Part shown: positions 16,459 to 49,177 of the stretch, piece by piece
How the letters are laid out: each line of letters begins with the position of its first letter
How positions within the stretch are numbered: the stretch's first letter is position 1
Assembly (NCBI GenBank): GCA_001563995.1
Contig: LKMV01000001.1
Coordinates: 1-49,177, forward strand
Length of the DNA stretch: 49,177 nucleotides
DNA from: Nanohaloarchaea archaeon PL-Br10_U2g16
Lineage (GTDB): Archaea > Nanohalarchaeota > Nanosalinia > Nanosalinales > Nanosalinaceae
Direction of reading: 5' to 3'
The notes under the pieces: generated by a model
Databases searched by the model: none
Told to the model about the DNA's origin: nothing
What the model saw: the letters and a program-made list of their open reading frames with translations, nothing else
Translations under genes and position numbers: made by a program

Positions 16459-16500
16459 CTTTTTTCTATTTTTTACCCTGTTTTTACCTTTATTTTTCAG
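16459..16500 (+). terminator. Oligo-T archaeal terminator after histone B
   Basis: TTTTTTCTATTTTTTACCCTGTTTTTACCTTTATTTTTC lies directly after the stop codon. Confidence 0.5.
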
Positions 16501-16966
16501 AACAAGTTCAGACCAACTTTGAATTAACCATTCTAATGGATATCAAGTAAATCAGTAGAAGCTCAAAAGGTTATCTAACTTTTAGTTATAGTAGAAGGGT
16601 GGTGAGGAGGTGTCCCCAGATGGTGGTGGTCGATCTAGGGACACGTTATAAAGTGGGTGCGGTTCATTAACGATATTTCAGCGCCTGTTTAAAAACCTTA
16701 GGAAGATCAGTTAGTAGAGAAAACTTGCATCTATAACATAGAATCTTATAATTAAGATAAAGCCTGACGATTAAAGCAACATAAAACATCATAAGAGTAG
16801 CTTAAAACCCTTGCCTGAAGCTATAACGTCAGATAACTAGTTCCAAAATATAAATATTATGTCCAATTGGTTTTTAGGTGGATCAGTTTGGAAAACAACA
16901 GCTTCAAATTACCGTCATTTATTTCAAATCACCATGGATTTAAGCTTTCCATCCGGGTAGGTTATT

Positions 16967-17968
16967 ATGGATAATGAAGAAATAATTGAAAACATCGTAG
17001 AGGAGACCGAACTCACAGAAGAAGATGTGAAGGAAGAGGTAGAAGATAAGATGGAGGAGTTTGACGGACTTGTCTCCGAGGAAGGCGCAATACATCTAGT
17101 AGCAAAGGAGAACGGCGTAAGACTTGCAGGAGAGACTGACACCGATCTAAAGATTGAAAACGTCGTACCTGACATGAGAAAAGTTAATATCAAGGCCAGA
17201 ATTGTAAATATAACCGACATGAACACGTTTGAGAGGGACGATGATGAAGAGGACGGACGTGTCCAAAACATTGTACTGGGAGACGATACCGGTACGATCA
17301 GGGTAACTTTATGGGATGACCAAACCGAAATAGCTGATAAAGTAGATGAAGGCGACGCTATAGAGATAGAGAGTGCATATACCGTGGAAGACAACCAGGG
17401 TAACGCAGAGATCAGGCTAGGAGACTCCACACAGGTAAAGAAAGCTGAAGATGACGAAGTACCGGAAGTAGATGTCGACTCCGGCTCCAGTGTTACAGAG
17501 TCCGATGTGAGAGGTATTAACTCGGAAAACGCCGAATACGTGGTTGACGGCATGATAGTAGATGTATATACATCTAATCCTTTCTACAGGGTCGATCCGG
17601 AGACAGGAGAGACTGTGAGGGAGAACGACGACGGAGATCTGATGACAGATGAAGGAAAAGAGGTCGAAGACCCCGATCACAGGCTAGCTCTCTCATGTGT
17701 ACTGGATGACGGCACAGGAAACATCAGAGTTGTGCTGTTTAGAGATCAGGCCAGAAACCTTCTTGGACTCGACGAAGAAAAGGAGAAAGAAGGAGATCTA
17801 AAAGCTGTAGAGGATGCAGCTGAAGAAGCTGTTGGAAAAGAGGTTCGGGTCGAAGGCAGAACACGTTTCAACGATTACTTTGGAAGGATTGAACTAGTTG
17901 GAAACAGCTTTGAACATCTGGAGACAGAGAATAAAATCGACGAACTTGTCGAAAAAGTAGGTGCTTAA
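16967..17968 (+). CDS. Replication protein A-like ssDNA-binding protein (OB folds)
   Basis: Acidic N-terminus, then two OB-fold-like modules (KIENVVPDMRKVNIKARIVNI...GDDTGTIRVTLWDDQ and a second with GTGNIRVVLFRDQA), typical of archaeal RPA/SSB. Confidence 0.8.
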   Translation: MDNEEIIENIVEETELTEEDVKEEVEDKMEEFDGLVSEEGAIHLVAKENGVRLAGETDTDLKIENVVPDMRKVNIKARIVNITDMNTFERDDDEEDGRVQNIVLGDDTGTIRVTLWDDQTEIADKVDEGDAIEIESAYTVEDNQGNAEIRLGDSTQVKKAEDDEVPEVDVDSGSSVTESDVRGINSENAEYVVDGMIVDVYTSNPFYRVDPETGETVRENDDGDLMTDEGKEVEDPDHRLALSCVLDDGTGNIRVVLFRDQARNLLGLDEEKEKEGDLKAVEDAAEEAVGKEVRVEGRTRFNDYFGRIELVGNSFEHLETENKIDELVEKVGA

Positions 17969-17991: not shown

Positions 17992-18963
17992 TTGAACACA
18001 AGGTGTCAAAAAGTGACAGATGAAAACGAAGTTGATCTCGAAGATCTGAAAGGCGTAGGAGCAAAAACAGCGGAAAAACTAACAGAAGCAGGATACGACG
18101 ACTTGATGTCGATAGCAACTATGTCTGCAGGAGATCTAGGAGAGGTAGCGGACCTCGGTGAGAAGAAATCCCAGAAGATAATTACTGCTGCAAGACAGGA
18201 ACTAGACCTAGGATTCGAGTCAGGAAAGGACAAGTACGATCAGAGAAAGCAGATGAAAAAGATTTCTACCGGTTCAGAGGATATGAATGACCTTCTGGGC
18301 GGAGGAGTTGAGACACAGTCCATCACAGAGTTCTACGGAGAGTATGGAAGCGGTAAGACCCAGTTAGCACACCAGCTTTCAGTAAACGTTCAGAAACCTG
18401 AGGAAGACGGAGGTATGGATAGAGGAGTTGTCTATATAGATACAGAAGATACCTTCACACCGGAAAGAATTGAACAGATCGCGGAAGGAGCAGATATGGA
18501 TGTAGAGGAAGTACTTGACAACATTCATGTGGCTAGAGCCTACAACTCAGACCATCAGATGCTTCTTGCTGATGAAGCTCAGGATATCTGCCAAAAGGAG
18601 AACATAGGCTTAATCATTGTAGACTCACTAACCGCCCAGTTCCGTGCAGATTATGTGGGGAGAGGAGAGCTAGCCCCAAGACAGCAGAAGCTAAACAGAC
18701 ATATGAACACTTTGCTAAGGCTTGCAAACTCACATAACGCTGCGGTAGTGGTTACAAACCAGGTAATGGCCAATCCAGACCAGATGTTCGGCGATCCGAC
18801 AAAGGCGATCGGAGGCCACATAGTAGCTCACAACTCCGCAGTAAGGCTTTATCTGAGAAAAGGTAAGAAGGACAAAAGGGTAGCGAAGCTAGTAGACAGC
18901 CCTTACATGCCTGAAGGCGAGTCGGTGTACAAGATTACCGACGACGGGATAATAGACGCATAA
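17992..18963 (+). CDS. radA: DNA repair and recombination protein RadA
   Basis: N-terminal HhH (LEDLKGVGAKTAEKL), Walker A GEYGSGKTQLAHQL and Walker B LIIVDSL. The true start may be the in-frame GTG at 18012 rather than the ATG at 17992. Confidence 0.95.
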   Translation: MNTRCQKVTDENEVDLEDLKGVGAKTAEKLTEAGYDDLMSIATMSAGDLGEVADLGEKKSQKIITAARQELDLGFESGKDKYDQRKQMKKISTGSEDMNDLLGGGVETQSITEFYGEYGSGKTQLAHQLSVNVQKPEEDGGMDRGVVYIDTEDTFTPERIEQIAEGADMDVEEVLDNIHVARAYNSDHQMLLADEAQDICQKENIGLIIVDSLTAQFRADYVGRGELAPRQQKLNRHMNTLLRLANSHNAAVVVTNQVMANPDQMFGDPTKAIGGHIVAHNSAVRLYLRKGKKDKRVAKLVDSPYMPEGESVYKITDDGIIDA

Positions 18964-26962: not shown

Positions 26963-27133
26963 GCCTCGGTGGCTCAGCCTGGCTAGAGCGGTCCCCTCGT
27001 AACCGATCAACTCGTGGAGTTGTGAGGCGAAGAAGATCTCTGATCTTCGAGTCCGACTTCTTGAGCGTAAGCGAAAGATGTCGGATGAAGGCGAGCAAGG
27101 GACAGATCCCGGGTTCAAATCCCGGCCGGGGCT
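26963..27133 (+). tRNA. tRNA-Thr(CGU) with long intron in the anticodon loop
   Basis: Hand-folded. Acceptor GCCTCGG pairs with CCGGGGC (one G-U). D-arm GCTC/AGCCTGGCTA/GAGC. Anticodon stem GTCCC with loop CTCGTAA (anticodon CGT), whose 3' partner GGGAC appears only after an insertion of about 96 nt. T-arm CCGGG/TTCAAAT/CCCGG, discriminator T, and no encoded CCA. Confidence 0.85.
27002..27097 (+). other. tRNA intron (about 96 nt) at canonical 37/38 position
   Basis: This sequence separates anticodon-loop nt 37 from the GGGAC 3' half of the anticodon stem. Exon CUCG can pair with intron CGAG to form the central helix of a relaxed bulge-helix-bulge. The boundary may shift by 1 nt because A is repeated. 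Confidence 0.7.
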
Positions 27134-34622: not shown

Positions 34623-34852
34623 ATATGCATAATTTCATCGACCGAATAGTTACTACAAACTATAATAGTAGATATTCAGTTATTCCAACAGAATTAAGAA
34701 TGTTAATTCAACTTTAACAATGATAACTCTGATAGTTATCTGAGAAGGATAAAACGATGGATATGATATCGACATGATTCATGAGAATGTTTGACTATAG
34801 ATCAGCACGATGATTATCATCGACGATCATGGGATGTTAATTCGACTTTAAC

Positions 34853-34877
34853 AACCCCTTGGTTTCTTGTGGAAAAA
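34853..34877 (-). promoter_or_regulatory. ORB-like element C
   Basis: The reverse complement TTCCACAAGAAACCAAGGGGT fits the archaeal ORB pattern TTCCAnnnGAAAC plus G-string. Confidence 0.65.
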
Positions 34878-34916
34878 TCTTTACTGTTCGATTAAACAGG
34901 CTTAAAACGTCTCGGG

Positions 34917-34939
34917 ACACACCCTTGTTTCGTCTGGAA
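34917..34939 (-). promoter_or_regulatory. ORB-like element D
   Basis: The reverse complement TTCCAGACGAAACAAGGGTGTG fits the ORB pattern with G-string GGGTG. Confidence 0.6.
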
Positions 34940-35215
34940 CCGATTTTTGTATAACACGGTTATAATTATTCAAGTTTTTTCAACAATTATTCAAGTTTTT
35001 TCAACCGAGTTGAAAAGTTGAATTGAAAAACGGATATAAAAGGCTTATTAGGCTCTAACTAGCTTTTCAACATGTTGAATAATTTGTTGAATAGTTGAAA
35101 AAGTGTTGAAAAACCGTCTTAGGGCATCATTTCTAGGATATAGAGCCTCTAAGTCGATTCAACACCTGTCAACAATGTTGAATAAACGGTTGAAAAGTTG
35201 AAAACATGTTGAAAA

Positions 35216-36202
35216 ATGGGGAAAAACGGGAGTAGAGGATTTTTATATTCAGAGGGACAATATCTGTCTGTAGGCATGGGATTTTTCAGCCGGATGGCAT
35301 TCTGGAAGAATAATGGAAACGATCAGGATAGAGATATGAACAATGGTAGGAATGTGAGTAATCCTGAGTTTGTGAATAGAGACTCTGATCAGGATCATTC
35401 AGTCCAGAAAAATAACCAGCCGCACAGAGAGACGGTTTCCCATAGATCCACCACCGATAACCCTCCCTCTGAGAAAGAGATTGGCCAGACAAAACAGGAG
35501 CTAAAGGAATTAAGAAACTTCACAATGGATAAGATGGATTCAGTGGCGGATGAGTTCGAGCAGATAAGGATGGAGGTCCAGGGCGTGAGGGATCAGAACA
35601 CCAAAGTCCAGGGAAAAATGTTCAATACTGTAGAAAAAGCGGTTAACAGGATTGACAAGCTAGAGAACAAGATAGATTCTCTCGAAAACAAAATAAATAA
35701 AACTAAAAATAGGGAAGAAGAAACCAAAAAGCTTGAAGGGCTAGAAGGAAAGATAGAATCTGTGGAAAAAACTCTTAAGTCCGAGATCAAACGTCTAGAT
35801 AAACAGAAGGTCGACGGACAGGACATAGTTAACATAAACATGTCTCAGGACGGCGGAAACAGCCAAAAACAGAGTAAAGATGCTAAAGTAGAATCAAAAA
35901 CTCAGAAAGAAGAGTTAAGAAGTAAGAGAAATAGTTCCAATAGTGATATAAGAAGTACACAGGATTTGAACCTGAAAAACTTAACCAAAAAGGAACAAGC
36001 AAAGATTAGAATCTTGGAAATGTTGAGAGAAGGGAAAGGAAAGACAGAGATAAGAGACAGTGTCGAGGGAGATATCTGTTCCAGAGAGTGGTTCTACAAG
36101 GCATGGGACGAGCTGGAGAGGCAAGAAGCCTACATAACCGGAAAGGGAGAAGCTTTAATACACCCTGAAGATTACAAGGAAGAAATAGTATCAAGAAATT
36201 AA
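35216..36202 (+). CDS. Coiled-coil protein with low-complexity N-terminus and C-terminal winged-helix-like domain
   Basis: Central heptad-rich region (ELKELRNF...NRIDKLENKIDSLENKINKTKNREEETKKLEGLEGKIESVEKTLKSEIKRLDKQ). C-terminus KEQAKIRILEMLREGKGKTEIRDSVEGDICSREWFYKAWDELERQEAYITGKGEALIHPED shows a helix-turn-helix-wing pattern. The start codon is uncertain, with alternative ATGs at 35276, 35296 and 35336. Confidence 0.55.
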   Translation: MGKNGSRGFLYSEGQYLSVGMGFFSRMAFWKNNGNDQDRDMNNGRNVSNPEFVNRDSDQDHSVQKNNQPHRETVSHRSTTDNPPSEKEIGQTKQELKELRNFTMDKMDSVADEFEQIRMEVQGVRDQNTKVQGKMFNTVEKAVNRIDKLENKIDSLENKINKTKNREEETKKLEGLEGKIESVEKTLKSEIKRLDKQKVDGQDIVNINMSQDGGNSQKQSKDAKVESKTQKEELRSKRNSSNSDIRSTQDLNLKNLTKKEQAKIRILEMLREGKGKTEIRDSVEGDICSREWFYKAWDELERQEAYITGKGEALIHPEDYKEEIVSRN

Positions 36203-37350
36203 CTTATTATCTTAGTTTTTTCTTCTAAATCATCTTTAGTCATCAACCAAATGCTTGAGGAATTAGCATTACCTTTTCTATCCATACCTACCAATATATC
36301 ACATCCTATATCTTCTGCTTTGCTTATCTTCTTATTGTCCAATTCTCCATCCATTAAAACAGCATAACCTTCTTCTACCTGCTCTATCTCATAGTCAAAG
36401 CTTTCAACAGGGAAACGTCTTTCAACATCCATCTCTGAGTTCATCACATAGACCGCTCTAGTTCCTATAAGATCCTCCATCTCTCCCTGAAACTTCTGTA
36501 TCTCTTCAGGAGTCAGCTCCTTGCTCTTTACCTCAGCAGTCTCTGTGTACTTCACAGGTTCCTTGTCTCTTAAAGCCTCATAAATTGTCTCTTTTCCTAG
36601 CTCCTCTACTTCCTTTTTATTAGGAGCTCTAGCCACATATTCAAGATCAATCTTACTTTTCATCTCTTTCAGTATCAGATCTCCTCCTCTGTCACCATCA
36701 AGAAATGCTGTCAGTTTCTTTTCCTCCGCAAGATCTACTAAATTATCCGGGACCGATGTCCCTCCTATACATACAGTATTCTTTACTCCTTTCTCCATCA
36801 AGTTCAGTATATCGGCTTTGCCTTCAACTATTACCACCTCTTCAGAGTTTTCTGCTTCAGGACCGGCTTTAAAGCCTATATAATCGGTTATCTCGGTAGT
36901 TCTTACCTCTTGCTTCACCTCATCAGTTATCTTAGCTGTCTCGGGTTTATCGTCCTGCATATCCTCTAGAAGCTGTTTTGCCCTCTTAACAATATAATCT
37001 CTCTTGGTTGTTCTCTGATCCTCTATCTCCCTGACTTTTATCTCTGCATTTGTAGGTCCTACCCTCTCAATAGTCTCAAGGGAAGCGCCTAAAAGTGCTG
37101 TTTCGGTTGAATCAAGCGAAGAAGGTATTTTGATAAATGCTTCAGAACATCCGTTACGGTCTTTAACCTTTACATCAATCCTGCCGACCTTGCCTCTTTC
37201 CTGAAGCTCTCTTAGATCTAGATCCTCTCCAAGAAGTCCTTCTGTCTGGCCGAAGATTGCTCCGACTACATCAGGCTTTTCTACCATGCCGTTAGACTCT
37301 AGCTTTGCTTTAACTACGTATTTTACCGAGTTCTGTGCTACTTTACCCAT
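36199..37350 (-). CDS. dnaG: Archaeal DnaG-type primase (Toprim domain)
   Basis: Toprim motifs VVIVEGKADILNL and FLDGDRGGDLI, with the overall architecture of archaeal DnaG. Confidence 0.85.
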   Translation of the reverse strand: MGKVAQNSVKYVVKAKLESNGMVEKPDVVGAIFGQTEGLLGEDLDLRELQERGKVGRIDVKVKDRNGCSEAFIKIPSSLDSTETALLGASLETIERVGPTNAEIKVREIEDQRTTKRDYIVKRAKQLLEDMQDDKPETAKITDEVKQEVRTTEITDYIGFKAGPEAENSEEVVIVEGKADILNLMEKGVKNTVCIGGTSVPDNLVDLAEEKKLTAFLDGDRGGDLILKEMKSKIDLEYVARAPNKKEVEELGKETIYEALRDKEPVKYTETAEVKSKELTPEEIQKFQGEMEDLIGTRAVYVMNSEMDVERRFPVESFDYEIEQVEEGYAVLMDGELDNKKISKAEDIGCDILVGMDRKGNANSSSIWLMTKDDLEEKTKIIS

Positions 37351-37746: not shown

Positions 37747-38451
37747 TTACTGGAAGAAAACACCTTCCTCCGGCACAGGTTTGAAGGTTGCCTGACGGGT
37801 CTTTGTCTGTGTAGGCTCCTCTCCATGGTACTTTCTAAGGTAATGGAAGTATTCGTTAGTCTTCTCCCTTGCAAACTCTCCGTCGTACTCTATCATCTCC
37901 TCGCCGATATAATGTAGGAAAGCCCATCTGAAGAACCTGTTAAGAGGTCTTGCAAGTATCCTTGGAAGAAAACTGATACCTTTAGGCATGTCATAACTGA
38001 TAAATGTCTTTACAAAGTACTCTACGTGTGCAAAGTTGTTTTCTCCTTCCGGGGGCGACTTAGTCTTGATATTAGTCTCTATCTTGTACTTTCCGCTGCC
38101 GCTAGGCAGATCTTGGTCGACCTCTATAGTTGCCTCAAAAGCTCCACTGGTAATCTTCTCATAATAGAAGGTTTCAGTAGGCCTAGCTATCTCCATAGCC
38201 TTTTTGAAGATATAGACATGGTCTTTATAGATCTTAGGCACGTGCGGGCTCTCATACCACTCTACCCTGTTCTGTATCTCTATTTCATGGCCGTCAAAGA
38301 TATGGAAGTCGTGCCAGATGTTATCGTCATCATCTTTATCAGGATCCGGAAACCTGAACCAGTAAAGCACAGGATCTAAAAACTCCTTAACGTATTCATT
38401 GCTTGGCACGTAGCCCTTTATCTTTTCCATATCCATAACTATCACTCCCAA
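37747..38451 (-). CDS. Hypothetical protein (234 aa)
   Basis: ORF overlapping the next gene by 10 nt. No motif recognised. Confidence 0.5.
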   Translation of the reverse strand: MGVIVMDMEKIKGYVPSNEYVKEFLDPVLYWFRFPDPDKDDDDNIWHDFHIFDGHEIEIQNRVEWYESPHVPKIYKDHVYIFKKAMEIARPTETFYYEKITSGAFEATIEVDQDLPSGSGKYKIETNIKTKSPPEGENNFAHVEYFVKTFISYDMPKGISFLPRILARPLNRFFRWAFLHYIGEEMIEYDGEFAREKTNEYFHYLRKYHGEEPTQTKTRQATFKPVPEEGVFFQ

Positions 38452-39062
38452 GGAGGCTTGTACGCCCCGCCTCCTGATCTGTGAATGGATTTTGAAACCC
38501 CGAACTTCTGCCTCATAATATTGTCTATATGTACTACCATCTCTTCTGCCTCTTCCTCATACTTCTCAATCTCTTTAGAGTAAATTTTATTGTACCAAAT
38601 ACCTACAAGTATCTCGTAGATCTTAGATTTATGGAAAGAAGACTTCTCATCAGAAAGACCGGCTTTACCCCAGTTTCTATGTGTCCTCTCTCTGAAACCT
38701 TCCGGCTCCCAAGGTATCTCATTCCTTCCCGGATAGACGGATATTACATTTCCTGTAATCTTTATCTTAGCCTTTAACACATCTTCAGGCCTCTCCAAAC
38801 GCTCCAATTTTCCAGGCGGCTTTGCATCAAGAGAAAGTTTTAACCGGATAACTGTGTTAGGGCTTTTCTCTTTAAATGCATAAAGTCTTATCCTGTCCTT
38901 AGGCTTTGAGACGTTAAACTCCTGTCTTTCGACATGTTCTACCCTATCCATATCGAACTCTTCAACCAGCAAATCCTTAAGCTCTCTGTAGATCCTTGCA
39001 GGATCTTCGTCCACGAAAAGGTTAGTAATTTTCTGGCCGCCAGACTCTTTAAACTTTACCAT
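38442..39062 (-). CDS. Hypothetical protein (206 aa), paralogous to the upstream 148-aa ORF
   Basis: The N-terminus FVDEDPARIYRELKDLLVEEFDMDRVEHVERQEF aligns with LLLEDPESTYPEIKDLLERRIGFDHVSEERYYHDI of the neighbouring ORF. KIKITGNVISVY also aligns with QIKGKLITHY. Confidence 0.5.
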   Translation of the reverse strand: MVKFKESGGQKITNLFVDEDPARIYRELKDLLVEEFDMDRVEHVERQEFNVSKPKDRIRLYAFKEKSPNTVIRLKLSLDAKPPGKLERLERPEDVLKAKIKITGNVISVYPGRNEIPWEPEGFRERTHRNWGKAGLSDEKSSFHKSKIYEILVGIWYNKIYSKEIEKYEEEAEEMVVHIDNIMRQKFGVSKSIHRSGGGAYKPPWE

Positions 39063-39064
39063 TT

Positions 39065-39511
39065 TTACCTCCCCTCCACGTTCTGCCTTACTCTAGTTAA
39101 TAGCTCCTCTACTTTTTCCTCTATAGGCTCCTCCCAGTGTTCCCTTACCGTTCCGTAAAGAAACTTATCGTAAAGGGCTCTGTAACCGTAGTACCATAAG
39201 GAATTTTTCCAGCCTTCTGTATCGTAATGAGTGATAAGTTTTCCTTTTATCTGCAAATCCAGCTCTCTGGAATCCTTCCTTATAACCAAATAAATATCTA
39301 GCTCCATCTTGGAGTTCTCATCAAAATGTTCTACTGCTTTTATCCTTGATCTTATCGTTCCTTTGTCAATATCATGGTAGTAACGTTCTTCAGATACATG
39401 ATCAAATCCTATACGTCTCTCAAGTAAGTCCTTGATCTCAGGATACGTTGATTCAGGATCTTCAAGCAGTAAGGTCTGTCTTCTTCTGACAGCCTCTTCA
39501 GTTATATCCAT
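39065..39511 (-). CDS. Hypothetical protein (148 aa), paralog of the 206-aa ORF
   Basis: See the alignment above. It sits 2 nt upstream of its paralog. Confidence 0.5.
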   Translation of the reverse strand: MDITEEAVRRRQTLLLEDPESTYPEIKDLLERRIGFDHVSEERYYHDIDKGTIRSRIKAVEHFDENSKMELDIYLVIRKDSRELDLQIKGKLITHYDTEGWKNSLWYYGYRALYDKFLYGTVREHWEEPIEEKVEELLTRVRQNVEGR

Positions 39512-40207: not shown

Positions 40208-43200
40208 TCAGACCGTAAACTGTTCAAGCCCGCTCTGACGGTTATCTTTACCGAATAAGCTTTGAATCGTCTTTTTCAGCACCAGAATCTCCTGTCTGGT
40301 GTAAGGTGAGATCTCATACTCATCTATCAGATCTTTCGATGGGTTCAAGTACTTCTTGATAGTCCCCTCAGAGATCGTAAGCAGTACCTTCCCGTCACAT
40401 TCAGGACACTGAGCCGTAGTCTTTCCTGTAGGAGCTATCGTCTGGTTGGTCATAGGCACACGTCTAAACTTGGTGTTACAGTCTACACAACGCATCTCCT
40501 GGGAAGAGAAAGATCTCAGATTTCCTTTAATATCCGGTATGAAATGTTTGTTCAGCAGAAGCTCCGCGACAGAGTCCTCATCCACACATTTCAGCTTTTC
40601 ACAGAGACCTAGCTGGGAAGACGTCTTATCACTCATCTCATCCAACGTTACGTACTCGCTCTGGTTTGGACCGTTCTCTACATTATCCGTGTCATGTGTA
40701 TAGCCATGTCTAAACGGCTCATCCGAATGGACGATATCCTCGCCTATCTGAATTTCTGTTTCAAGTTCCCATGGCTTTTTGTAATCCAAAGTTTCCTCGT
40801 AAAAGCTGAGAGGATATTCATCAACAGTCTCTATCGCCCATGCCTCATCGTCCACCTCATCAGCGTTCAAAACTGTTGAAAGGATTAATGGTGCGTCCAT
40901 GGTTCTTGCACCTGTCATGTCAGGCAGGAACTCTCTTGAAAAGTTTAAAAGTCCATCCATAAGCAGTAGAATAGCGTCCTCATCACCATCACAGTTGTTT
41001 GTGATTAAATTTTCAGATGTGAGGAAGTTATGTGTTTCTTCAACCTCTATATCGTACATAAACCTTTCCTCAGCTTTCTCTATTTCTTTCTCAGTTATTT
41101 CATCCAGCACCAAATCATTTTTAATTTCTATTCTTGGTTTTCTAGCCTTCTCATAATCTTTTTCTAACGTTTGTTGCTTTCTTTCCAGCTCAAATCCTAT
41201 TTCCTTACCAAACTTTACCGCAAAGGAAGATCTTATGTGTAGCTTGTGGGATGTAAATGTCTCCCCCTCATAATGTTCCTCTCCGTACTTGTCAATTAAT
41301 ATACCTCCGGCTTCTCTTTCAGAAGTTGAGAAACGGGCAAATATTCCAAATCTCTTCAAGAGAAAGTCCATATCATCCAAAAGCTCTCTTGAAACAGATG
41401 TAGCGTTTATATGTAGTCTACCGTCTTCAACAGCTCCATCTCCAGCGAAGTATGCTGAAAGCATATGTCTTACCTTCTCTTTAGGCAGAGATTTGACTAA
41501 CTGCGGTACCTTTTTAGTATGAGCTCCTTTTCCGGCTTCAAGGTTTTCAAACACCTCATAGATGATCCTAGAACTTATGGTTAGTATATGGTCTCCTTCA
41601 GATGGTTCAACACCGAATACTTCTACAATACTTTGTTCTATATCTTTTTTCAGTTTTTCTTCTCCAAAAGCGAAACATACCTGGTAAAACTCTTCTCCTT
41701 TTTGCTCTGATTTCCTAATATACCCTTCAGCGAGATAGTATCCTATCAACTTCATGAAATGCTTATCTATCTTTACTGTATTTTCTATCTCGATATTATC
41801 TCTTTTAGCTGCTAAAACTGCGTCATCCGAGATGCTATAATCTTTATCTGCGGCCTCCGACAAATTATTAAGAACTTCTATCGGCGTACTTTCTCTATAT
41901 CTGTAGTTGCTTAGAGTTTTTTTATTTGTGCCTATCTCATCCGAAGCTGATTTCAAGCCTCCTAAACTATCAATTAGCCTATTCAGCTCCTCGTTAGAAC
42001 CTCTTATACTTATATCCTCTGGCTCTATAAAATCAGTTATTCTTATTTTGAGTATATCATCTTCTTCTACAGGTATGGTTAATGGATTAATGACCTTATC
42101 TCCTTCATCTACCGCTCTAGCTTTTTTTATACCCTCTTCGGTCTTCACCTTGTGATCCGGGAACACTGATATCTTTCTGCCCGATCCTGTCTCGAAATGG
42201 ATTTTAAACTCTTGGGCAGGGGCTCTATACACCTTAGAAGCTTTAGAAGAGTTTAAAGAACCGTTCTGCTCCGAAACAACATCCAGATCAATACTTTTCT
42301 CTACAGTGCCTGTGCTGTCAGCCTCTTCAGCACCATCAGCCCTTTCAAATAACTCCTTTAACTTGATACTGTCCCCATTAGCAAGCTTAATTTTCTCATC
42401 TCCTGGTAAACAGTTCCTTCTTTTCGCTGCATGCCAGTAAGGGTGTGCATAAATCCCTTTAGCGTCTGTAAACCCTATAATCCTTCCTACTGTTCCTCCC
42501 GAGGTGTGGGGAGCCAGCCCGATTACGAGAGACCCTACAAGATCTTCTTTATCCTCTACATTATAGTAAGGCTCTAGACCGTAAAACTTCTCCAAAAGTT
42601 CATCCACAAAATCTGCTACACGCATAAAGTAGTCTCCTGCAGCTAAAGTATTGTCTGAGTCAGGTATGACTATGTCCTGAGGCTTCATGGCTAACACTTG
42701 GTCCTCTGATTCAAGAGGCTCTCCATCAACATCCTCAGTGTATCCAAGCTCTCTAAGCCTTTCTACTGATACAGATATTTCCTTAGGCTTGAAATGTGTC
42801 ATCGGTAGATCGGATGCATCGTATCTGACCGTTCCGTCCTTGTTTACGTATAAATCATACTTTTCTCTCAGAAATCCTTTTTCTATAGGCTCTACATGTT
42901 TATGTTTCCCGCTCATACCTCTAACGGATTTAAGCAGCTCAGGCATCTTTCTTATTCCAAGATTGTCCATAGCTCTATTGACAAGATCCTCTACCTCGAT
43001 ATCAGTATATTTGTATCTTGACAGTCTATCGTTTCCACAGCTATCACAAACCTCTTTTTCTTCTTTATGCTCTTTCTTACAGTCTGTACAGAACCATATC
43101 GGCTCAGTGGAAACGTTACAGTCCAGACAGTATGAGAAGTAGCTGTAATCTCCGCATTCTGGACATTTATTATGTATTATACCCTCTCCGTTAATTTTTC

Positions 43201-45130
43201 CATGTTCGTATGCAGCTGCCAGGTTTCTCATCCTACCACCTTCTTCTTTACCGCAAGGGAACAGAAGCTGTGGCTTTCCTTTAATTGTTCTTCTTTCAGC
43301 CTTCTCAGGACGGCCCATCCTTCCTCCAAGGTAATGTGGTGCTTGTTCTCTAAGCTCTACACCTGATACCTCCTCAATAAACTCGGGTATATCTTCAGCA
43401 GATTCAATATCATTCAAAGCATCTTCATTGTCCTGCTCCGGTCTCAAGAGAGCTTTTAACACCTTGTGATCATTTTTAGTAAGCTTTATCTCTCCATCCT
43501 CCATCTTATGTTGGAGAAGTATATCTTCAAGACATTCTTTAGTTTTTTTACCGGAAAGATCCTCGTTTTCCAGAGAGCTGTACAGTGCTTTAAACCTTTC
43601 AACAGTGGTCTCAGTCCAGTGGTAGGTCCATTTTGGATGGAGCGGTATACCGAGTTTTTCAGATATTTTAAACGCCTCCTCCGGGGTCGGATCCCTATCT
43701 GTAAAGTCCCTACCCAGCTTTACGTCTTTTTGTTCCACAGCTCTCCCCAGCTCTTTCTCCCACCACTCTTCAACATAAGGAGATGGTAAAAGTTTTTTAC
43801 CGTTCTCTACAAACTCTCCAAACGGCGTTAACATGTCTCCTAGGAACAGTATCTCCTCTATATCATCTTCATATTTGGTAACCATCTCCCTTGACTCCAT
43901 CCTCATCACATCACCGTTTTCCAGTTTTACAACAGGCGGATGTATAGATTCACAAGGCGTTCCAACCGTAGCTTTCATAGGATACTCTGTCTTCATCTGT
44001 GTTCCTATAGAAAGAAACCTTTCCGTTACCTCCATGGTAGCAGGATGGAAAGATGTAGCTGCAAGCCCGTTAGTCCTAGAGTGGCCGTATCTAAGTCTAA
44101 AGCCTCCTTTTCTTCCAGGATGGCCAAATACAGGTCTTCCAGCGGTAAGAGAGCCAAGGTATTTGTCCGATGGAGTGTATCCTTTTTCTTCCTCTTTACC
44201 ATCTTCCTCCTCTTCTTCGTCAGAATCTCCTGATGAGTGAATCTCTTTCTGAAGATCAAGATAACCTCCGACCCATTCCCAGTGCTCCAGTCCAAACTCT
44301 TCTCCCCATTTCTCTATACGTTTTTTTATCTTAGGGGCTTTAAGAGGTAGTCCATCTAGATATACCAGACACATACCTCCTCTTATTCTATTGCTTTGTA
44401 CCCTATCTAAGTCTTTGTAATTTGAAACATCCAGCTGCTCAGTAGGCGATCCTGTGACCTCTACAGGCACGTTTTCAGCGATGAACTCTGTCTCTTCTCT
44501 GGTCGGGTTGTACTGTTTGGCTGTAATTCTGTTATAGTAGTCTTCAACCTCTGCAGCATACCTTTTAACCACTGTATCGGAAGGTTTGAACTTATCAAGT
44601 CCGACACCTATCCTCACGTAATCAGATAGAAGCACGCTCATAGCTGATGCCGTTCCACCGGCAGATCTGATAGGTCCTGAGTAGTAAACCGCCAGATATT
44701 CTGTTCCATCGTTGTTTTCACGTATCTTTATTTCTCCAATTCCTTCTAAAGGCGCTGTGGTGATTCCTCCTGTCATGTAGGACACACCTACACGAATACC
44801 TGCGTTACAAGCCTTTTCTTTATCATCAAACTCGTAAAAATCCCCTTGTGCTATCTCTCTGGCGATCGAGAAAGCTACACGTTCATCATTTTTACCATAC
44901 TCATCCTCTAGCTCTCTTATCCTTTCAGGCACCCCTTGGTCTTCAAGCTCCGGAAACTTGGCGGCCATAACAAGCGAAGAAGCCTTTTCCGGAAGATCTG
45001 TTGCTACAGGGATATCTGCCTTTTTCTCCGGATCTTTAGACTGTGATCTTGCTTCGTTAGCAACCTCAAATGCTTTATCCGTCTGTTCAGATATTTTTTC
45101 AAAGTATTTTTCTGTTTCCATTACTTTCAC
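40208..45130 (-). CDS. DNA polymerase II (PolD) large subunit DP2, intein-containing
   Basis: The conserved DP2 catalytic block YAHPYWHAAKRRN|...|CDGDEDAILLLMDGLLNF is split by an insertion. The C-terminal zinc-finger clusters of DP2 are also present. Confidence 0.97.
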   Translation of the reverse strand: MKVMETEKYFEKISEQTDKAFEVANEARSQSKDPEKKADIPVATDLPEKASSLVMAAKFPELEDQGVPERIRELEDEYGKNDERVAFSIAREIAQGDFYEFDDKEKACNAGIRVGVSYMTGGITTAPLEGIGEIKIRENNDGTEYLAVYYSGPIRSAGGTASAMSVLLSDYVRIGVGLDKFKPSDTVVKRYAAEVEDYYNRITAKQYNPTREETEFIAENVPVEVTGSPTEQLDVSNYKDLDRVQSNRIRGGMCLVYLDGLPLKAPKIKKRIEKWGEEFGLEHWEWVGGYLDLQKEIHSSGDSDEEEEEDGKEEEKGYTPSDKYLGSLTAGRPVFGHPGRKGGFRLRYGHSRTNGLAATSFHPATMEVTERFLSIGTQMKTEYPMKATVGTPCESIHPPVVKLENGDVMRMESREMVTKYEDDIEEILFLGDMLTPFGEFVENGKKLLPSPYVEEWWEKELGRAVEQKDVKLGRDFTDRDPTPEEAFKISEKLGIPLHPKWTYHWTETTVERFKALYSSLENEDLSGKKTKECLEDILLQHKMEDGEIKLTKNDHKVLKALLRPEQDNEDALNDIESAEDIPEFIEEVSGVELREQAPHYLGGRMGRPEKAERRTIKGKPQLLFPCGKEEGGRMRNLAAAYEHGKINGEGIIHNKCPECGDYSYFSYCLDCNVSTEPIWFCTDCKKEHKEEKEVCDSCGNDRLSRYKYTDIEVEDLVNRAMDNLGIRKMPELLKSVRGMSGKHKHVEPIEKGFLREKYDLYVNKDGTVRYDASDLPMTHFKPKEISVSVERLRELGYTEDVDGEPLESEDQVLAMKPQDIVIPDSDNTLAAGDYFMRVADFVDELLEKFYGLEPYYNVEDKEDLVGSLVIGLAPHTSGGTVGRIIGFTDAKGIYAHPYWHAAKRRNCLPGDEKIKLANGDSIKLKELFERADGAEEADSTGTVEKSIDLDVVSEQNGSLNSSKASKVYRAPAQEFKIHFETGSGRKISVFPDHKVKTEEGIKKARAVDEGDKVINPLTIPVEEDDILKIRITDFIEPEDISIRGSNEELNRLIDSLGGLKSASDEIGTNKKTLSNYRYRESTPIEVLNNLSEAADKDYSISDDAVLAAKRDNIEIENTVKIDKHFMKLIGYYLAEGYIRKSEQKGEEFYQVCFAFGEEKLKKDIEQSIVEVFGVEPSEGDHILTISSRIIYEVFENLEAGKGAHTKKVPQLVKSLPKEKVRHMLSAYFAGDGAVEDGRLHINATSVSRELLDDMDFLLKRFGIFARFSTSEREAGGILIDKYGEEHYEGETFTSHKLHIRSSFAVKFGKEIGFELERKQQTLEKDYEKARKPRIEIKNDLVLDEITEKEIEKAEERFMYDIEVEETHNFLTSENLITNNCDGDEDAILLLMDGLLNFSREFLPDMTGARTMDAPLILSTVLNADEVDDEAWAIETVDEYPLSFYEETLDYKKPWELETEIQIGEDIVHSDEPFRHGYTHDTDNVENGPNQSEYVTLDEMSDKTSSQLGLCEKLKCVDEDSVAELLLNKHFIPDIKGNLRSFSSQEMRCVDCNTKFRRVPMTNQTIAPTGKTTAQCPECDGKVLLTISEGTIKKYLNPSKDLIDEYEISPYTRQEILVLKKTIQSLFGKDNRQSGLEQFTV
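40994..42412 (-). other. Intein in PolD DP2 (473 aa) with LAGLIDADG homing endonuclease domain
   Basis: The intein starts CLPGDEKIKLANGD directly after KRRN and ends ...HNFLTSENLITNN, followed by extein CDGDEDA. Internal LAGLIDADG motifs are LIGYYLAEGY and LSAYFAGDGA. The penultimate residue is Asn, not His. Coordinates come from locating TGT at 42410-42412 and the C-terminal AAC at 40994-40996. Confidence 0.85.
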
Positions 45131-46710
45131 ATAAAGTTCTTTACTCTGGTATTTCGGTTTTTGTAGTTAACTATAGTTACCTTTCCAGGATCAGGTTCGT
45201 GCCCTACACGTTTCTGGAAATCCGTCTGGGCCTGGAAGCTCGATGAATTTATTACATTAACACCTTTATAACTTTGATTGCAGTGGGAGTGGAAATGGCC
45301 GGCTACAAAGATATCCGGTTTTTCATAGATTACAAGCTGGTCTTCACCTTCAGGAGAGATAGGTGTATCTCCATACGTAGGAGCCAGGTGTCTCCTCTTT
45401 AGAAGATCTATCATCACATGTTGTGGCTCCTCGTAGGCTTTTTCCCTTAGATCCTGTATCTTATCGACATGATCATCAAATGAACTTCCGTGGTACATCA
45501 GATTTTTGATCCCTTTAGTCTCAAAGCCGTGTAGCCTTACCATCTGAGGGTTTTGAACTAGATGAACGTTGTTGTAGTCTCTTATATTTGGTAGGGCTTT
45601 TTCAGGAAGGATAGGCTGTGGTTCAGACAACCTGACAATATCGTGGTTTCCTGGAGAGGCTATAACCTGTATCCTTTCCGGCAGCTTATCCACCCATTCC
45701 TCAAAAAGCCTGTACTGTTCGTAGACATCGTTGACCCTGAGTTCTTCCTCCTGACCAGGGTATACACCTACACCTTCCACCAGATCACCGGTTATAACCA
45801 GATAACCGACATTCTTTGCATCTTCAGACTTTAACCACTCAGCAAACCTCTGAAGTTTGTTATACATTGTGTCCTTCGATCCGATATGTAAATCTGAAAT
45901 ATACGCTGCCTCTACATTGTCCTCAGTTGTCTTAACCCCGTCAGGAATAGGAAGATCAGGCCTCACAACTTTGTTAGCGTACAGAATATCTCCTCCCATG
46001 CTGCCTATAAATCCTAATGCCTCGTCTGGAACTATCATATCGCCTTCTCTCTCATCTACTAACACCTTAAACGTATCAGTCTTGTCCTCTATCTCGACAA
46101 TGTACTTTCCGGAGTTTGTGCTGTACTTATCTTTTACAAGACCTATAGCGGTAGCATCTTCTCCCTCATTTCTTCTTGACAGCCTGTTTAATGTAGTAGC
46201 CGCCTGTAACTCTTTCCTTCTCATCAAAAGCTTCTTCATCTTGTCGTAACGGCTGTTGTAGTACTCTAAAAACTCAGGAACATCTTTCTCTTCCTTTGTT
46301 ATTTCTTTCTCATCCATCACTTCTACCTTGGTTCTCATCCGTTTATTCCTATCTCCTTCATCCAGTATTTTAACCCCTTTAGTTCCTGACTCTTCCTTAT
46401 TCTTAGTATTTTTATCCTTATTAGAGTGTTCTTGTGGATCATCAACAGATTCTTCAGGATCTTCTGTTTCCATCTCTTCTTTCAGATCCTCTTTTAGATT
46501 TTCATTACTTTCAGACTCCTGTTTCTGCATCTCCTCAAGCTTCTGATCAATTTTTTCCCTTAAAGAATCCAACATGTCCTCAGTGATATACATAGGAGGT
46601 GAGTTCAGCTCTTTAATCGCTTCTATATCTTCCTCCGTCAGCGATTCAGCTGCTTCTTTCTCTACTATACATCCTTCTTTAGTCAACTGTTTAACTGCTG
46701 CCTTGTTCAT
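45127..46710 (-). CDS. DNA polymerase II (PolD) small subunit DP1 (calcineurin-like phosphoesterase)
   Basis: YISDLHIGSKD, ITGDLVEGVG, ASPGNHDIVR and FVAGHFHSHC motifs; a Lys/Glu-rich linker; a 4-nt overlap with the DP2 gene. Confidence 0.92.
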   Translation of the reverse strand: MNKAAVKQLTKEGCIVEKEAAESLTEEDIEAIKELNSPPMYITEDMLDSLREKIDQKLEEMQKQESESNENLKEDLKEEMETEDPEESVDDPQEHSNKDKNTKNKEESGTKGVKILDEGDRNKRMRTKVEVMDEKEITKEEKDVPEFLEYYNSRYDKMKKLLMRRKELQAATTLNRLSRRNEGEDATAIGLVKDKYSTNSGKYIVEIEDKTDTFKVLVDEREGDMIVPDEALGFIGSMGGDILYANKVVRPDLPIPDGVKTTEDNVEAAYISDLHIGSKDTMYNKLQRFAEWLKSEDAKNVGYLVITGDLVEGVGVYPGQEEELRVNDVYEQYRLFEEWVDKLPERIQVIASPGNHDIVRLSEPQPILPEKALPNIRDYNNVHLVQNPQMVRLHGFETKGIKNLMYHGSSFDDHVDKIQDLREKAYEEPQHVMIDLLKRRHLAPTYGDTPISPEGEDQLVIYEKPDIFVAGHFHSHCNQSYKGVNVINSSSFQAQTDFQKRVGHEPDPGKVTIVNYKNRNTRVKNFM

Positions 46711-46732: not shown

Positions 46733-47938
46733 TTAAATGTAAAACTTTTCTTCTACTAGTTCATTGACCTGTCTCCTTATATCTTCGGAAAGGTCAACGC
46801 TTATCTGTCTTGTTCTACCGTATCTCCCCTTTGAAATAACCTTTGCGTTTATCACGCCAAGCATATCCAGCTCAGATATAAGTCCTGATACTCTTCTCTG
46901 CGTTAACTCGGATACCTCAACCTTCTCACAGATCTGTTTGTACTCAGAGTACACATCCCCTGTGGCAATCTCTTCCTCATCCTCTACCATCTCAAGGATT
47001 GTATAGAGTACAAGCTTCGAATGTTTAGGCTGAGAACGTACAGTCTCTACTATTCTATCCCTTTCAATCTTTTCCTGAGCTTTATCTACATGTTCTACAG
47101 TGATGATATTTTTGCTGGATCTCTCAGCTAGCTCCCCGGCTACCCTTATAAGATCCAAAGCTCTTCTAGCATCACCGTGTTCCTGTGCCGCAAGAGCAGC
47201 ACATTTGGAAATTACACCATCCTCCATACAGTTCTCTACAAAAGCTCTATCAGTTCTGTCCTTAAGTATCTCCCTAAGCTCTATAGCATTATAAGGCGGA
47301 AATATAATCTCTTCTTCCGATAGAGATGATTTAACCCTTGAATCCATATACTCAGTGAAGTTAAGATCGTTTGAGATACCAAGAATAGATACTTTAGTTT
47401 CTTTCAAATCATCGTTAATCCTTGTAAGGTTGTATAGAAACTCATCTCCTACCTTCTTTACAAGAGCATCTATCTCGTCCAATGCTATAATTACTACTCC
47501 TTTCTGTCCTTTTAAGGCTTCAAAGAATCTGTTATAGACTTCATCAGTTGGTAGACCTGTACTCGGTACTTCTGCTCCTAACTGTTCTGCTAACCTTGCT
47601 AAAAGTCTGTACTCGGTGTCAGCTACTTTTTTCATCTTACAGTTAATGTATAATATGTTAAGATCTACCTGTTCGTCATCAGCAACCTCTCCTAGCTGAT
47701 CTGTAACGTGTTTTGTAATAAGCGTCTTTCCTGTTCCTACTGATCCATATACAAATACGTTACTTGGATCATCTCCTCTCAGGCTTGGAGCAAGTATTGA
47801 TGCTAGATTATCTATCTGTTGATCTCTGTGTAATATATTTTCAGGCTTCCAGTTGGTGGTTAAAGCATCCTTGTTATCGAAAAATGATTCTTTTTCAATA
47901 TAACTTGAAAACTTTGATTTCAGGTTAGTTTCTGACAT
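46733..47938 (-). CDS. orc1: Orc1/Cdc6 replication initiator
   Basis: Walker A VYGSVGTGKTLITKHV, Walker B IALDEIDAL and a C-terminal winged-helix region. Confidence 0.95.
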   Translation of the reverse strand: MSETNLKSKFSSYIEKESFFDNKDALTTNWKPENILHRDQQIDNLASILAPSLRGDDPSNVFVYGSVGTGKTLITKHVTDQLGEVADDEQVDLNILYINCKMKKVADTEYRLLARLAEQLGAEVPSTGLPTDEVYNRFFEALKGQKGVVIIALDEIDALVKKVGDEFLYNLTRINDDLKETKVSILGISNDLNFTEYMDSRVKSSLSEEEIIFPPYNAIELREILKDRTDRAFVENCMEDGVISKCAALAAQEHGDARRALDLIRVAGELAERSSKNIITVEHVDKAQEKIERDRIVETVRSQPKHSKLVLYTILEMVEDEEEIATGDVYSEYKQICEKVEVSELTQRRVSGLISELDMLGVINAKVISKGRYGRTRQISVDLSEDIRRQVNELVEEKFYI

Positions 47939-48283
47939 TTTTTCCCACCGGTAAAACTTTCTTGTTCAGATTTATCGCCCCGTGTATTGCATTTGAAATG
48001 TAGGTTATAAATACCTTTCCAATCGAACCCGGGGTTAGTCGAATACACACCCCTTGATTTCATATGGAGTATAGAAAACATCTCCATCTACCGATATAAC
48101 AGTGTTATATAATATATCATTGTTATTAGAAGAAGAAATAGAATGGAAATATAGTTCCATAGGAAACCGAGGGGAGGAAGAACTTACAGTTTTTTACGTT
48201 AAGACAGCCGGGATGAAAATAACCCCTTGGTTTCACTTGGAGAATGAAGTTTGAAAAAGAAAAAAATTGTTGTAAGGTTGAAA
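47939..48283. other. Replication origin (oriC): three ORB elements flanking an AT-rich DUE, upstream of orc1
   Basis: ORB-A 48046-48069 is CACACCCCTTGATTTCATATGGAG and ORB-B 48221-48242 is AACCCCTTGGTTTCACTTGGAG; both read as TTCCA...GAAAC...GGGG on the minus strand. ORB-E 48155-48177 (TTCCATAGGAAACCGAGGGGAGG) has the opposite orientation. The AT-rich stretch 48070-48154 between A and E is a candidate duplex unwinding element. Confidence 0.8.
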
Positions 48284-49177
48284 CTATTCATAGATTAATT
48301 CGAACTTTTCTATTTCCCTATCTAATATTTCTTTGTAGTTACTGAACTTTTCTTTAGTCATATCACCTTCTTCCATCTCGACTCCGTTTTTATTATGTAC
48401 CATGAGATAAGAGTCTCCGTCTTCGGCATACTGTTCTGAGTGCTCAGGGGTACTGTTTTTAATTATTACAAAGTCTTCCGTCTCTAGTTCTCTATAAGAG
48501 TTATTAAATTGATTAATAATTTTTAAAGAACCCTTTTCAGTTTTAAGATTAAGTTTTTCCCTAGATTCTTTCACAGAGTAATCAAAGTATCTATTTCTAC
48601 TGTTGAAAACAGTTTGGAATGTATTTAATGATAAAATTCTTTGATTAGCCAAACGTTTCTCGATATTAACGGTTTTTGTTTCATTATTTACTTTAATCTC
48701 TGTTTTTCCTACCGAACTTCCTACGATATCAAAACTGACTGATTTTGTGGAGTTAGCTGGGACTGTTATTTTTCTATATGGTTTTTCAAGAAGATCAAGT
48801 CTGGAGTTTCTATCGGTTTCCAGATATATCTTCTCTTCAAGCTTGAACCGGTTGGGATTACTAACTTTGGCTGTGACCGTTGCTTGAGTTTCCTTTTCAA
48901 TAGTTTCCGGTGCTTGAAGTTCTAAAGCGTATTCTTCTCTGTTTACAAACCTTTCTGAGTCCTTTGAGATAACTTTACTGTCTGTAATATATACCTCTAC
49001 CTCAGATCTTCCTTTTGGTAGTTCTCCAACTCTAAACCTGTTGTTTCCTTGTTCAAGGTTGATATCTCTAGAGCTCCTGATACCGTTGAAGCTGTAGATT
49101 AGCTTGATATCCATCTCCCGGTCTGAAAATATTTCCGCGTAGACCGTATTTTGTTCTTTCTCCAGATTTACGGAGGC
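48284..49177 (-). CDS. Hypothetical protein, N-terminally truncated by the window edge
   Basis: The reading frame stays open upstream of the ATG at 49114 to the window end (...ASVNLEKEQNTVYAEIFSDRE-MDIKL...). Ser/Asn/Lys-rich beta-like segments repeat, so it may be a surface or Ig-like repeat protein. Confidence 0.5.
   Translation of the reverse strand, partial: ASVNLEKEQNTVYAEIFSDREMDIKLIYSFNGIRSSRDINLEQGNNRFRVGELPKGRSEVEVYITDSKVISKDSERFVNREEYALELQAPETIEKETQATVTAKVSNPNRFKLEEKIYLETDRNSRLDLLEKPYRKITVPANSTKSVSFDIVGSSVGKTEIKVNNETKTVNIEKRLANQRILSLNTFQTVFNSRNRYFDYSVKESREKLNLKTEKGSLKIINQFNNSYRELETEDFVIIKNSTPEHSEQYAEDGDSYLMVHNKNGVEMEEGDMTKEKFSNYKEILDREIEKFELIYE

Follow-up and report, generated by a model that had tools for sequence, protein, structure and literature searches.

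A probable oriC1-type replication origin at the orc1 promoter of a nanohaloarchaeon, with a palindromic array in its AT-rich element

Introduction

The 345-bp intergenic gap at positions 47939-48283, between the minus-strand gene orc1 and a convergent open reading frame, reads as an oriC1-type chromosomal origin combined with the promoter of the gene for its initiator, an interpretation to which we assign a probability of roughly 0.8. It lies in a 49,177-nucleotide stretch of a nanohaloarchaeal genome, the whole of which was analysed and is referred to below as the window. The reading is based on the adjacent gene for an Orc1-1 class initiator, on ORB boxes made up of a dyad and a G-string, on the placement of two of these as an inverted pair around an AT-rich element, and on the conservation of the arrangement. 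Comparison with related loci supports an origin of this type being conserved across the Nanohaloarchaeota and recognisable in other DPANN lineages.

As this architecture is textbook, and is the pattern called by predictors such as Ori-Finder-Arch, the main finding is confirmatory. Two aspects appear more worthy of follow-up, namely a palindrome array in the putative unwinding element and a lineage-specific second ORB module 13 kb away. The DPANN archaea, nanohaloarchaea among them, are obligate symbionts with tiny genomes and are genetically hard to study, and our literature searches found no characterised or described replication origin for nanohaloarchaea or for any DPANN. Together with 35 or so homologues, the locus offers a testable origin map consisting of three ORBs, a two-unit palindrome array and a putative autoregulated promoter. 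Such a map may serve to anchor genome coordinates, to estimate growth rates from read coverage in metagenomes and to guide the design of assays for Orc1/MCM loading, while the palindrome array provides a handle on an accessory origin protein outside the Sulfolobales.

Results

The putative origin locus and its initiator

The gene orc1/cdc6 (46733-47938, minus strand) encodes a 401-aa protein of the Orc1-1 class with Pfam matches to Cdc6_C, Cdc6_lid and AAA. A preliminary description of the locus had placed orc1, both PolD subunits and dnaG on the minus strand, and the Pfam and NCBIfam assignments agree: DP1 occupies 45127-46710 and DP2, which contains a LAGLIDADG intein, 40208-45130 (both minus strand, Pfam), followed by archaeal dnaG at 36199-37350 (minus strand; NCBIfam score 399.9 bits, cutoff 300). 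Throughout the Nanohaloarchaeota the genes keep the order orc1-DP1-DP2-CBS-three unknowns-DUF167-dnaG. Most intergenic gaps in the window are shorter than 120 bp, and only four, that at 47939-48283 included, exceed 300 bp.

Among solved structures, the encoded Orc1 is closest to S. solfataricus Orc1-1 (2QBY_A, E 1.7e-104), followed by A. pernix ORC1 (2V1U_A, E 2.6e-100), and its winged-helix DNA-binding segment is well conserved. It is 82-86% identical to the Orc1 of many Nanohaloarchaea genomes. The initiator is thus assigned, by sequence, to the Orc1-1 class, i.e. to the ORB-recognising type. Both 2QBY_A and 2V1U_A are crystal structures with origin DNA.

On the other side of the gap, the open reading frame at 48284-49177 runs past the end of the window. 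An oligo-T tract read from the sequence, TTTTTTTCTTTTTC (48245-48283, minus strand), follows the stop codon of this convergent right-hand frame; it is probably the transcription terminator of that frame and would then lie outside the origin core. A scan of 47800-48400 for bacterial-type promoters and terminators was set aside, the host being archaeal.

ORB boxes in the gap

Three ORBs had been proposed at 48046-48069, 48155-48177 (inverted) and 48221-48242. All three were found there with zero-mismatch cores, and they score 34.6, 24.2 and 22.8, respectively, on a weight matrix derived from 72 boxes in related genomes, to which the window itself did not contribute. ORB1 (TACTCCATATGAAATCAAGGGGTGTG, 48046-48071, minus strand, 0 mismatches) turns its dyad end toward the AT-rich element and its G-string away from it. 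ORB2 (AGTTCCATAGGAAACCGAGGGGAGGA, 48153-48178, plus strand) is inverted with respect to ORB1, and the outlying ORB3 (TTCTCCAAGTGAAACCAAGGGGTTAT, 48219-48244, minus strand) is oriented like ORB1. Each box consists of a TCCA-N3-GAAA dyad and then, 2-3 nt away, a G-string, and all three fit TCCA-N3-GAAAYC-N-AGGGG. Their core 19-mers, at 48050-48068 (minus), 48156-48174 (plus) and 48223-48241 (minus), match TCCANNNGAAAYCNAGGGG with no mismatches. Together, ORB1 and ORB2 make up an inverted repeat with 19-nt arms that are 84% complementary and 87 nt apart; its G-strings point outward and its dyad ends inward.

Such boxes are rare in the window. Allowing up to two mismatches, TCCANNNGAAAYCNAGGGG has four matches against 0.27 expected, a count reached in 0 of 100 shuffles, while a 20-mer in the style of the preliminary description has four against 0.04 expected. 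The relatives-only matrix yields exactly five sites in the 49-kb window, three of them in 47939-48283, and its best non-ORB match in the window scores 6.2; applied to 30 random sequences it gave a mean top score of 6.1 and a maximum of 19.1. Since there are only these five sites, none of them at any other promoter, the boxes are not a common promoter motif, the circumstance which had been named in advance as refuting an origin and which was checked and found not to hold.

ORB2 and ORB3 score below most boxes of the relatives and are without the second G-run, GGGGGTGGGGGT, that characterises ORB1 in the family, which counts against the origin reading; the window's own boxes have the first G-run only. 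We considered the extended halophile G-string as a marker of halophiles and rejected it, because the ORBs followed by a second G-run make up 41% in core Nanohaloarchaeota and 29% in distant DPANN, too weak a difference.

The AT-rich spacer and its palindrome array

The three boxes had been described as bracketing an AT-rich stretch of about 85 bp. ORB1 and ORB2 do bracket it, and its length, flanks and composition stand as described (48070-48154; 85 bp, 24.7% GC against 42.3% for the window). ORB3 does not take part, sitting 40-48 nt outside ORB2, and the palindrome array within the stretch had gone without mention. The least stable 60-mer of the window is 48094-48153 (rank 1 of 49118, z = 3.6). 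AT-richness alone is nevertheless undistinctive, because other short intergenic stretches are nearly as AT-rich; what distinguishes the site is the combination of the AT-rich stretch with flanking boxes, rather than composition.

The spacer between the two boxes (48072-48152, GC 0.25), a putative duplex unwinding element (DUE), is a phased array of the 15-bp palindrome TATAAC-N3-GTTATA with a period of 18-19 nt. One of the window's two units is a perfect palindrome, TATAACAGTGTTATA (48095-48109), whose columns are nearly invariant in a 25-locus alignment; the other, TATATCATTGTTATT (48113-48127), is degenerate, with two mismatches, and lies 18 nt from the first. At up to one mismatch the palindrome has two copies in the window against 0.16 expected. 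The perfect unit is 41 nt from the ORB1 core, a distance of 40-43 nt in 22/25 loci. The phase of the array is fixed among the relatives, with 27-31 nt from ORB2 to the start of the first unit and 40-43 nt from the start of the last unit to ORB1, and spacers of 87-91 nt (the window's included) hold two units while those of 105-111 nt hold three.

Across 45 loci, 74 palindrome copies (up to one mismatch) fall in 8.9 kb of origin spacer, against 53 in 706 kb elsewhere, and 28 of 31 Aenigmatarchaeota-like loci have a palindrome within 650 nt upstream of orc1. Judged from these loci, the array is conserved across DPANN. Some of the copies outside the spacers are intragenic: in relatives, the large gene on the upstream side of the putative origin contains palindromes roughly 1.8 and 3.2 kb away from orc1. 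These encode YNGVI and PITPLY, and the palindrome-linked synonymous positions are fixed across diverged loci, which points to selection at the level of the DNA and therefore to a protein-binding site over mere easy-melting sequence.

The orc1 promoter

A conserved TATA box for orc1, TTTATAA (48005-48011, minus strand), lies about 70 nt from the ATG and has a degenerate ORB-like element on either side. Just downstream of it, in the direction of orc1, is a degenerate ORB dyad, TTGCATTTGAAATG (47987-48000), within a plus-strand box at 47985-48010 (dyad-core score 9.8). Directly upstream, at the BRE position, is a second degenerate box, CTTTCCAATCGAACCCGGGGTTAGTC (48015-48040, plus strand; dyad score 9.0). 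Both have counterparts among the relatives: a block homologous to the 47985-48010 dyad, ATTATAAACCTTGGTTTCAAGTAGAA, is nearly invariant in 25 loci and appears in relatives as a 3-mismatch box at about -70, and the 48015-48040 box corresponds to a conserved minus-strand box, TTCCATCCGAAGCCAAGGTG, at about -100. The dyad at 47985-48010 is a candidate, and in our judgement a probable, Orc1 autoregulatory site.

Conservation among relatives

We compared two sets of loci, 80 around orc1 in species-representative genomes and 23 from metagenomes with DP2 at their centre. All 26 close loci with enough upstream sequence have an ORB on the orc1 strand at -114 to -151, and 25 of them an inverted ORB 70-200 nt further upstream (-232 to -280); most also have a third at -342 to -593. 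The complete ORB(-)/palindrome/ORB(+) arrangement upstream of orc1 is present in 24/26 core Nanohaloarchaeota loci, in 9/10 loci at 63-69% Orc1 identity (Nanoanaerosalina, Asbonarchaeum) and in 13/31 Aenigmatarchaeota-like loci, although the matrix was trained on Nanohaloarchaeota. [quoted passage not shown]

The family consensus of the box is yTCCAcnyGAAAyCArGGGGT, with ORB1 usually extended to GGGGGTGGGGGT. Outside the boxes, the palindromes and the TATA block, the 25-locus alignment shows no conservation. The spacer between ORB2 and ORB1 measures 87-111 nt and has a mean GC of 0.32 against a locus mean of 0.47 (26 loci). That between ORB3 and ORB2 ranges from 48 to 312 nt among loci and is shortest in the window.

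Neither GC skew nor gene orientation switches consistently at the site in the 15-21 relatives compared, for which each flank extended up to 10 kb. In these relatives 47% of the coding bases on its far side point away from it; on the side of orc1 the share is 90%, a figure dominated by one conserved operon. In the window itself a skew switch would be invisible, since the window ends 0.9 kb beyond the site.

A second ORB site 13 kb away

The remaining two matrix sites form a tandem pair of ORBs on the same strand as orc1, spaced 65 nt apart, at 34851-34876 and 34916-34941 (minus strand; matrix 31.3 and 21.9). Eight nucleotides beyond them is the window's only other perfect copy of the palindrome, TATAACACGGTTATA (34950-34964), and then an AT-rich, iteron-like array of about 240 bp (34977-35215) in which GTTGAAWA occurs 12 times, counting both strands. 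The window has 19 copies of this motif in all, against 4.9 expected, so that 12/19 lie within the array. The site occupies a 593-bp divergent gap (34623-35215) between a gene for an M48 peptidase and a coiled-coil open reading frame. The dyad ends of both tandem ORBs face the array, as ORB1 faces its AT-rich element; a matrix and dyad scan of the window found no opposing ORB on the array's far side.

Synteny with relatives stops at dnaG, one gene before this site. No ORBs were found at a counterpart position in the 23 DP2-centred metagenome loci, nor in five loci around M48 homologues, and none of the 80 orc1 loci was found to contain a GTTGAAWA cluster. A single palindrome does precede M48 in one relative, by 73 nt. 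The idea of a conserved second origin is thus unsupported, the relatives' loci being without ORBs both at the syntenic position and at M48 homologues. Among the loci compared, the second ORB site is found in this genome only, and by that comparison it is lineage-specific. In distant DPANN loci, tandem ORB pairs do occur beyond polD, at 5-7 kb downstream of orc1, and one such locus, L055, has a palindrome between the two ORBs.

Derivation from a mobile element was considered for the second site and found no support, as some 45 genes of the window run through Pfam and NCBIfam proved to be housekeeping genes only, with no integrase, second orc1 or MCM among them. A structured RNA was likewise dropped: Rfam, run on the whole window, and ARAGORN gave no RNA gene in either of the two ORB-bearing intergenic regions. 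An accessory Orc1-binding or regulatory role appears more likely for the second site than a second origin, by analogy with known clusters described below.

Discussion

Proposed mechanism

Since Orc1-1/ORB complexes have been solved and the winged helix is conserved here, we propose that one Orc1 monomer would bind each ORB, its winged helix on the dyad and its AAA+ initiator-specific motif on the G-string. By analogy with Sulfolobus oriC1 and Haloarcula oriC1, two opposed ATP-Orc1 molecules on ORB1 and ORB2 would recruit MCM to the AT-rich element, which would then melt, with replication proceeding bidirectionally. The palindrome units may be sites for a further, dimeric origin factor, much as the Sulfolobus ucm is bound by UBP; less likely, they may act as intrinsic unwinding repeats. 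ORB3 would be an accessory site comparable to ORB1 of Sulfolobus oriC1. Finally, Orc1 may repress its own transcription through the degenerate dyads that flank the orc1 TATA box.

A broader proposal can be made tentatively, with the odds somewhat against all of its parts holding together. The DPANN unwinding element, from Nanohaloarchaeota to Aenigmatarchaeota, would be a phased palindromic array (TATAAC-N3-GTTATA, 18-19 nt) serving a dimeric origin factor, and the extra intragenic copies, under DNA-level selection, would act in the manner of ucm/UBP sites or of a centromere. In the present genome the module of ORB and palindrome would have been duplicated into a one-sided second site by the GTTGAAWA iteron array, and this site would be either an Orc1 titration or regulatory locus or a non-canonical second origin.

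Alternative explanations

The boxes might instead be Orc1 operators that regulate only orc1, with the polD operon perhaps included, at an origin that is dormant or vestigial, initiation taking place elsewhere or by recombination. The degenerate dyads around the TATA box and the lack of a skew or orientation signal are both in keeping with this, and archaea that replicate without an origin, or whose ORB-bearing origins are dispensable or dormant, are known, as is reported for Thermococcus kodakarensis (PMC5663688) and Haloferax mediterranei (PMC4595724). A pure operator, however, has no need of two full ORBs in inverted orientation 110-240 nt ahead of the start codon, with an AT-rich array of constrained length between them, a geometry that is kept in 24/26 close loci and across phyla, and that is the minimal functional origin pattern. 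We therefore consider regulation alone unlikely. Far less probable again is that the boxes repeat by chance, or that they represent some general motif of promoters or transcription factors with no link to replication: only their place in a promoter-containing intergenic region speaks for it, while the excess of matches (four against 0.04-0.27 expected), their absence from other promoters, the cross-phylum conservation of position and orientation and the agreement of the dyad with published ORBs leave this explanation effectively refuted.

A further alternative is that the main or an additional point of initiation is the site at 34851-35215, which would give two origins 13 kb apart or make the orc1-proximal site the secondary one. 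The strength of its ORBs, its perfect palindrome and AT-rich repeats, and the unusual length of its gap for a compact genome lend this some appeal, as do the downstream tandem ORB pairs in other DPANN loci. The site nevertheless has no opposed ORB on its far side, and in Sulfolobus and Haloarcula both inverted ORBs are required; it is also absent from relatives, syntenically as well as beside M48 homologues. Better precedents for it are non-initiating clusters, those in Pyrococcus dp1 (PMC1904270) and Haloarcula oriC2D (PMC3936714). We thus hold initiation at 34851-35215 to be somewhat more doubtful than regulation of orc1 alone, and retain an oriC1-type origin at 47939-48283 as the preferred reading.

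Comparison with known origins

An ORB combines a dyad, recognised by the winged helix, with a G-rich element recognised by the AAA+ initiator-specific motif (Ori-Finder-Arch preprint), and ORB(-)/DUE/ORB(+) is the smallest arrangement that makes a functional origin (Ori-Finder-Arch preprint; PMC12141716). The preliminary description had likened the locus to the ORB-DUE-ORB layout of characterised archaeal origins, a likeness upheld by the inverted pair, the AT-rich element and the adjacent orc1, all conserved in relatives. The euryarchaeal ORB consensus, GTTCCAGTGGAAAC-AAA----GGGGG (PMC1868953), has the TCCA-N3-GAAA dyad in common with the window's boxes, and the dyad of the S. solfataricus mini-ORB, GATTTTCAGATGAAACG (PMC3089459), is the same as theirs.

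The oriC1 of Sulfolobus/Saccharolobus resembles the present locus in its three ORBs, an inverted pair of which flanks an AT-rich DUE with a conserved motif inside, and in its adjacent initiator gene, whose product is the closest solved homologue (2QBY_A) of the Orc1 studied here. The dyad, TCA/TCCA-N3-GAAA, is likewise shared. In Sulfolobus, the inverted ORB2 and ORB3 are each required, and origin firing depends on the ucm inside the DUE, to which the abundant protein UBP binds (PMC12141716). The palindrome shares a trait with ucm, being a short conserved motif in the DUE between inverted ORBs that also occurs at other genomic sites. We draw this parallel as a functional analogy and claim neither homology nor membership. 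Sulfolobus oriC1 has a single 11-bp ucm, whereas a 15-bp palindrome in two or three phased copies is found here; in the boxes of the present candidate origin the G-string follows 2-3 nt after the dyad.

Haloarchaeal oriC1 (Haloferax volcanii, Haloarcula hispanica, Halobacterium NRC-1) shares inverted ORBs, whose G-strings appear to point outward as well, an AT-rich core, and orc1 and DP1 nearby. In H. hispanica both inverted ORBs and their terminal G-strings are essential (PMC3936714), and the G-strings can be taken to point outward because the text describes a C-run on the left ORB and a G-run on the right (PMC3936714). The sequence of the validated Haloferax ori-pHV3 has outward G-runs, as in the window. 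This comparison of polarity rests on that text and on the ori-pHV3 sequence, not on figures or structures, and we found no explicit statement of ORB polarity relative to the DUE in the literature. The GGGGGTGGGGGT extension of most Nanohaloarchaeota ORB1 boxes resembles the halophile-specific double G-string. Unlike the haloarchaeal origins, with about 1.4 kb of intergenic sequence and an extended G-string, the present gap measures 345 bp and its boxes have the first G-run only, and AT-rich palindromes take the place of the haloarchaeal G-rich inner inverted repeat (enhancer).

For the second site, the functional precedent is H. hispanica oriC2D, an ORB cluster likewise set apart from the origin and downstream of the initiator gene. 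It is ORB-rich, lies downstream of oriC2-cdc6E and represses oriC2, probably by initiator titration (PMC3936714). In contrast to its many ORBs directly downstream, the two at 34851-34941 are 13 kb away, and their palindrome and GTTGAAWA array are without a described counterpart. Pyrococcus provides a second precedent of non-initiating Orc1 binding, its orc1 lying between two ORB-bearing sites with the second cluster in dp1 (PMC1904270), whereas the second cluster here is intergenic, 13 kb off and lineage-specific. The Pyrococcus ORB has a longer spacer between dyad and G-string than the window's boxes. Thermococcales origins (Pyrococcus abyssi and P. furiosus) share with the present locus the order oriC-orc1-DP1-DP2, which in the Nanohaloarchaeota extends to dnaG.

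A second ORB site and its surroundings

Origin recognition boxes (ORBs) are also found in the window 13 kb from orc1, in a long divergent intergenic region (34623-35215); the gene order shared with relatives stops at dnaG, one gene short of this region. Two tandem, high-scoring ORBs (34851-34876 and 34916-34941) are followed there by a perfect copy of the origin palindrome, TATAAC-N3-GTTATA (34950-34964), and by twelve GTTGAAWA repeats (34977-35215). None of the relatives examined yielded a counterpart of this site. The region also carries a 21-nt direct repeat, ATGTTAATTCRACTTTAACAA, whose copies (34700-34720 and 34834-34854) are 95% identical and 134 nt apart, the second directly adjoining the first tandem ORB.

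Within the minus-strand orc1-polD-dnaG cluster, the large subunit of PolD (DP2, 40208-45130) is interrupted by an intein of approximately 460 aa (40997-42385), in which the Pfam domains Intein_splicing (residues 916-1378) and LAGLIDADG_3, of the LAGLIDADG homing-endonuclease type (residues 1219-1312), were detected. Three further minus-strand ORFs, 39065-39511, 38442-39062 and 37747-38451, have no match in Pfam or NCBIfam. In every Nanohaloarchaeota locus examined they follow one another in the same order, with the CBS-domain gene on one side and DUF167-dnaG on the other, and together (37747-39511) they are uncharacterised members of the cluster.

Elsewhere in the window, an Rfam tRNA match on the plus strand (26963-27133; 171 nt, 42.8 bits) is absent from the ARAGORN output and presumably represents an archaeal tRNA gene that contains an intron. 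The window's largest gap holds a plus-strand ORF of 65 aa (16261-16458), which by eye looks like an archaeal histone; it lies upstream of the genes for RPA (16967-17968) and RadA (17992-18963), an unassigned stretch of about 500 nt (16459-16966) separating it from the former.

Origin elements in relatives

Tandem ORB pairs recur in Aenigmatarchaeota and Nanoanaerosalina loci. There the two boxes share the strand of orc1, are spaced by 27-61 nt and occupy the intergenic region that follows polD, downstream of orc1 at a distance of 5-7 kb (L055, at 15170-15260; L046, L049, L050, L054, L056, L060, L028, L036 and L039). In several of these loci, such as L054 and L060, no inverted pair of ORBs was recovered upstream of orc1 by the weight matrix trained on Nanohaloarchaeota boxes, so the origin may there lie at the opposite end of the operon. 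Among the deposited loci, L010 and L048 encode an Orc1 of nanohaloarchaeal or DPANN type; their bins bear bacterial names (Colwellia polaris and Saccharibacteria), and both are probably mis-binned contigs.

Two loci, L038 and L039 (Orc1 identity 63-67%), contain 7 to 9 copies of the palindrome within approximately 660 nt upstream of orc1 (100-660 nt), far above the 2-3 of Nanohaloarchaeota; with three lying further upstream, the total in L039 reaches 12.

Palindromes outside the origin spacer

Palindromes also occur away from origins, as illustrated by a lone perfect copy, TATAACACTGTTATA, in L106 (5928-5942), 73 nt upstream of a relative's M48 peptidase gene and with no ORB nearby; such copies are perhaps operators. 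Closer to the origin, the large gene upstream of oriC contains copies at distances of approximately 1.8 kb and 3.2 kb from orc1 in L001 (at ~6744 and ~8132) and likewise in L005, L009, L013, L016 and L021. These copies encode YNGVI and PITPLY, and their synonymous positions are fixed across diverged genomes, a pattern of conservation which suggests DNA-level selection on these intragenic, origin-proximal sites, in the manner of parS or ucm sites.
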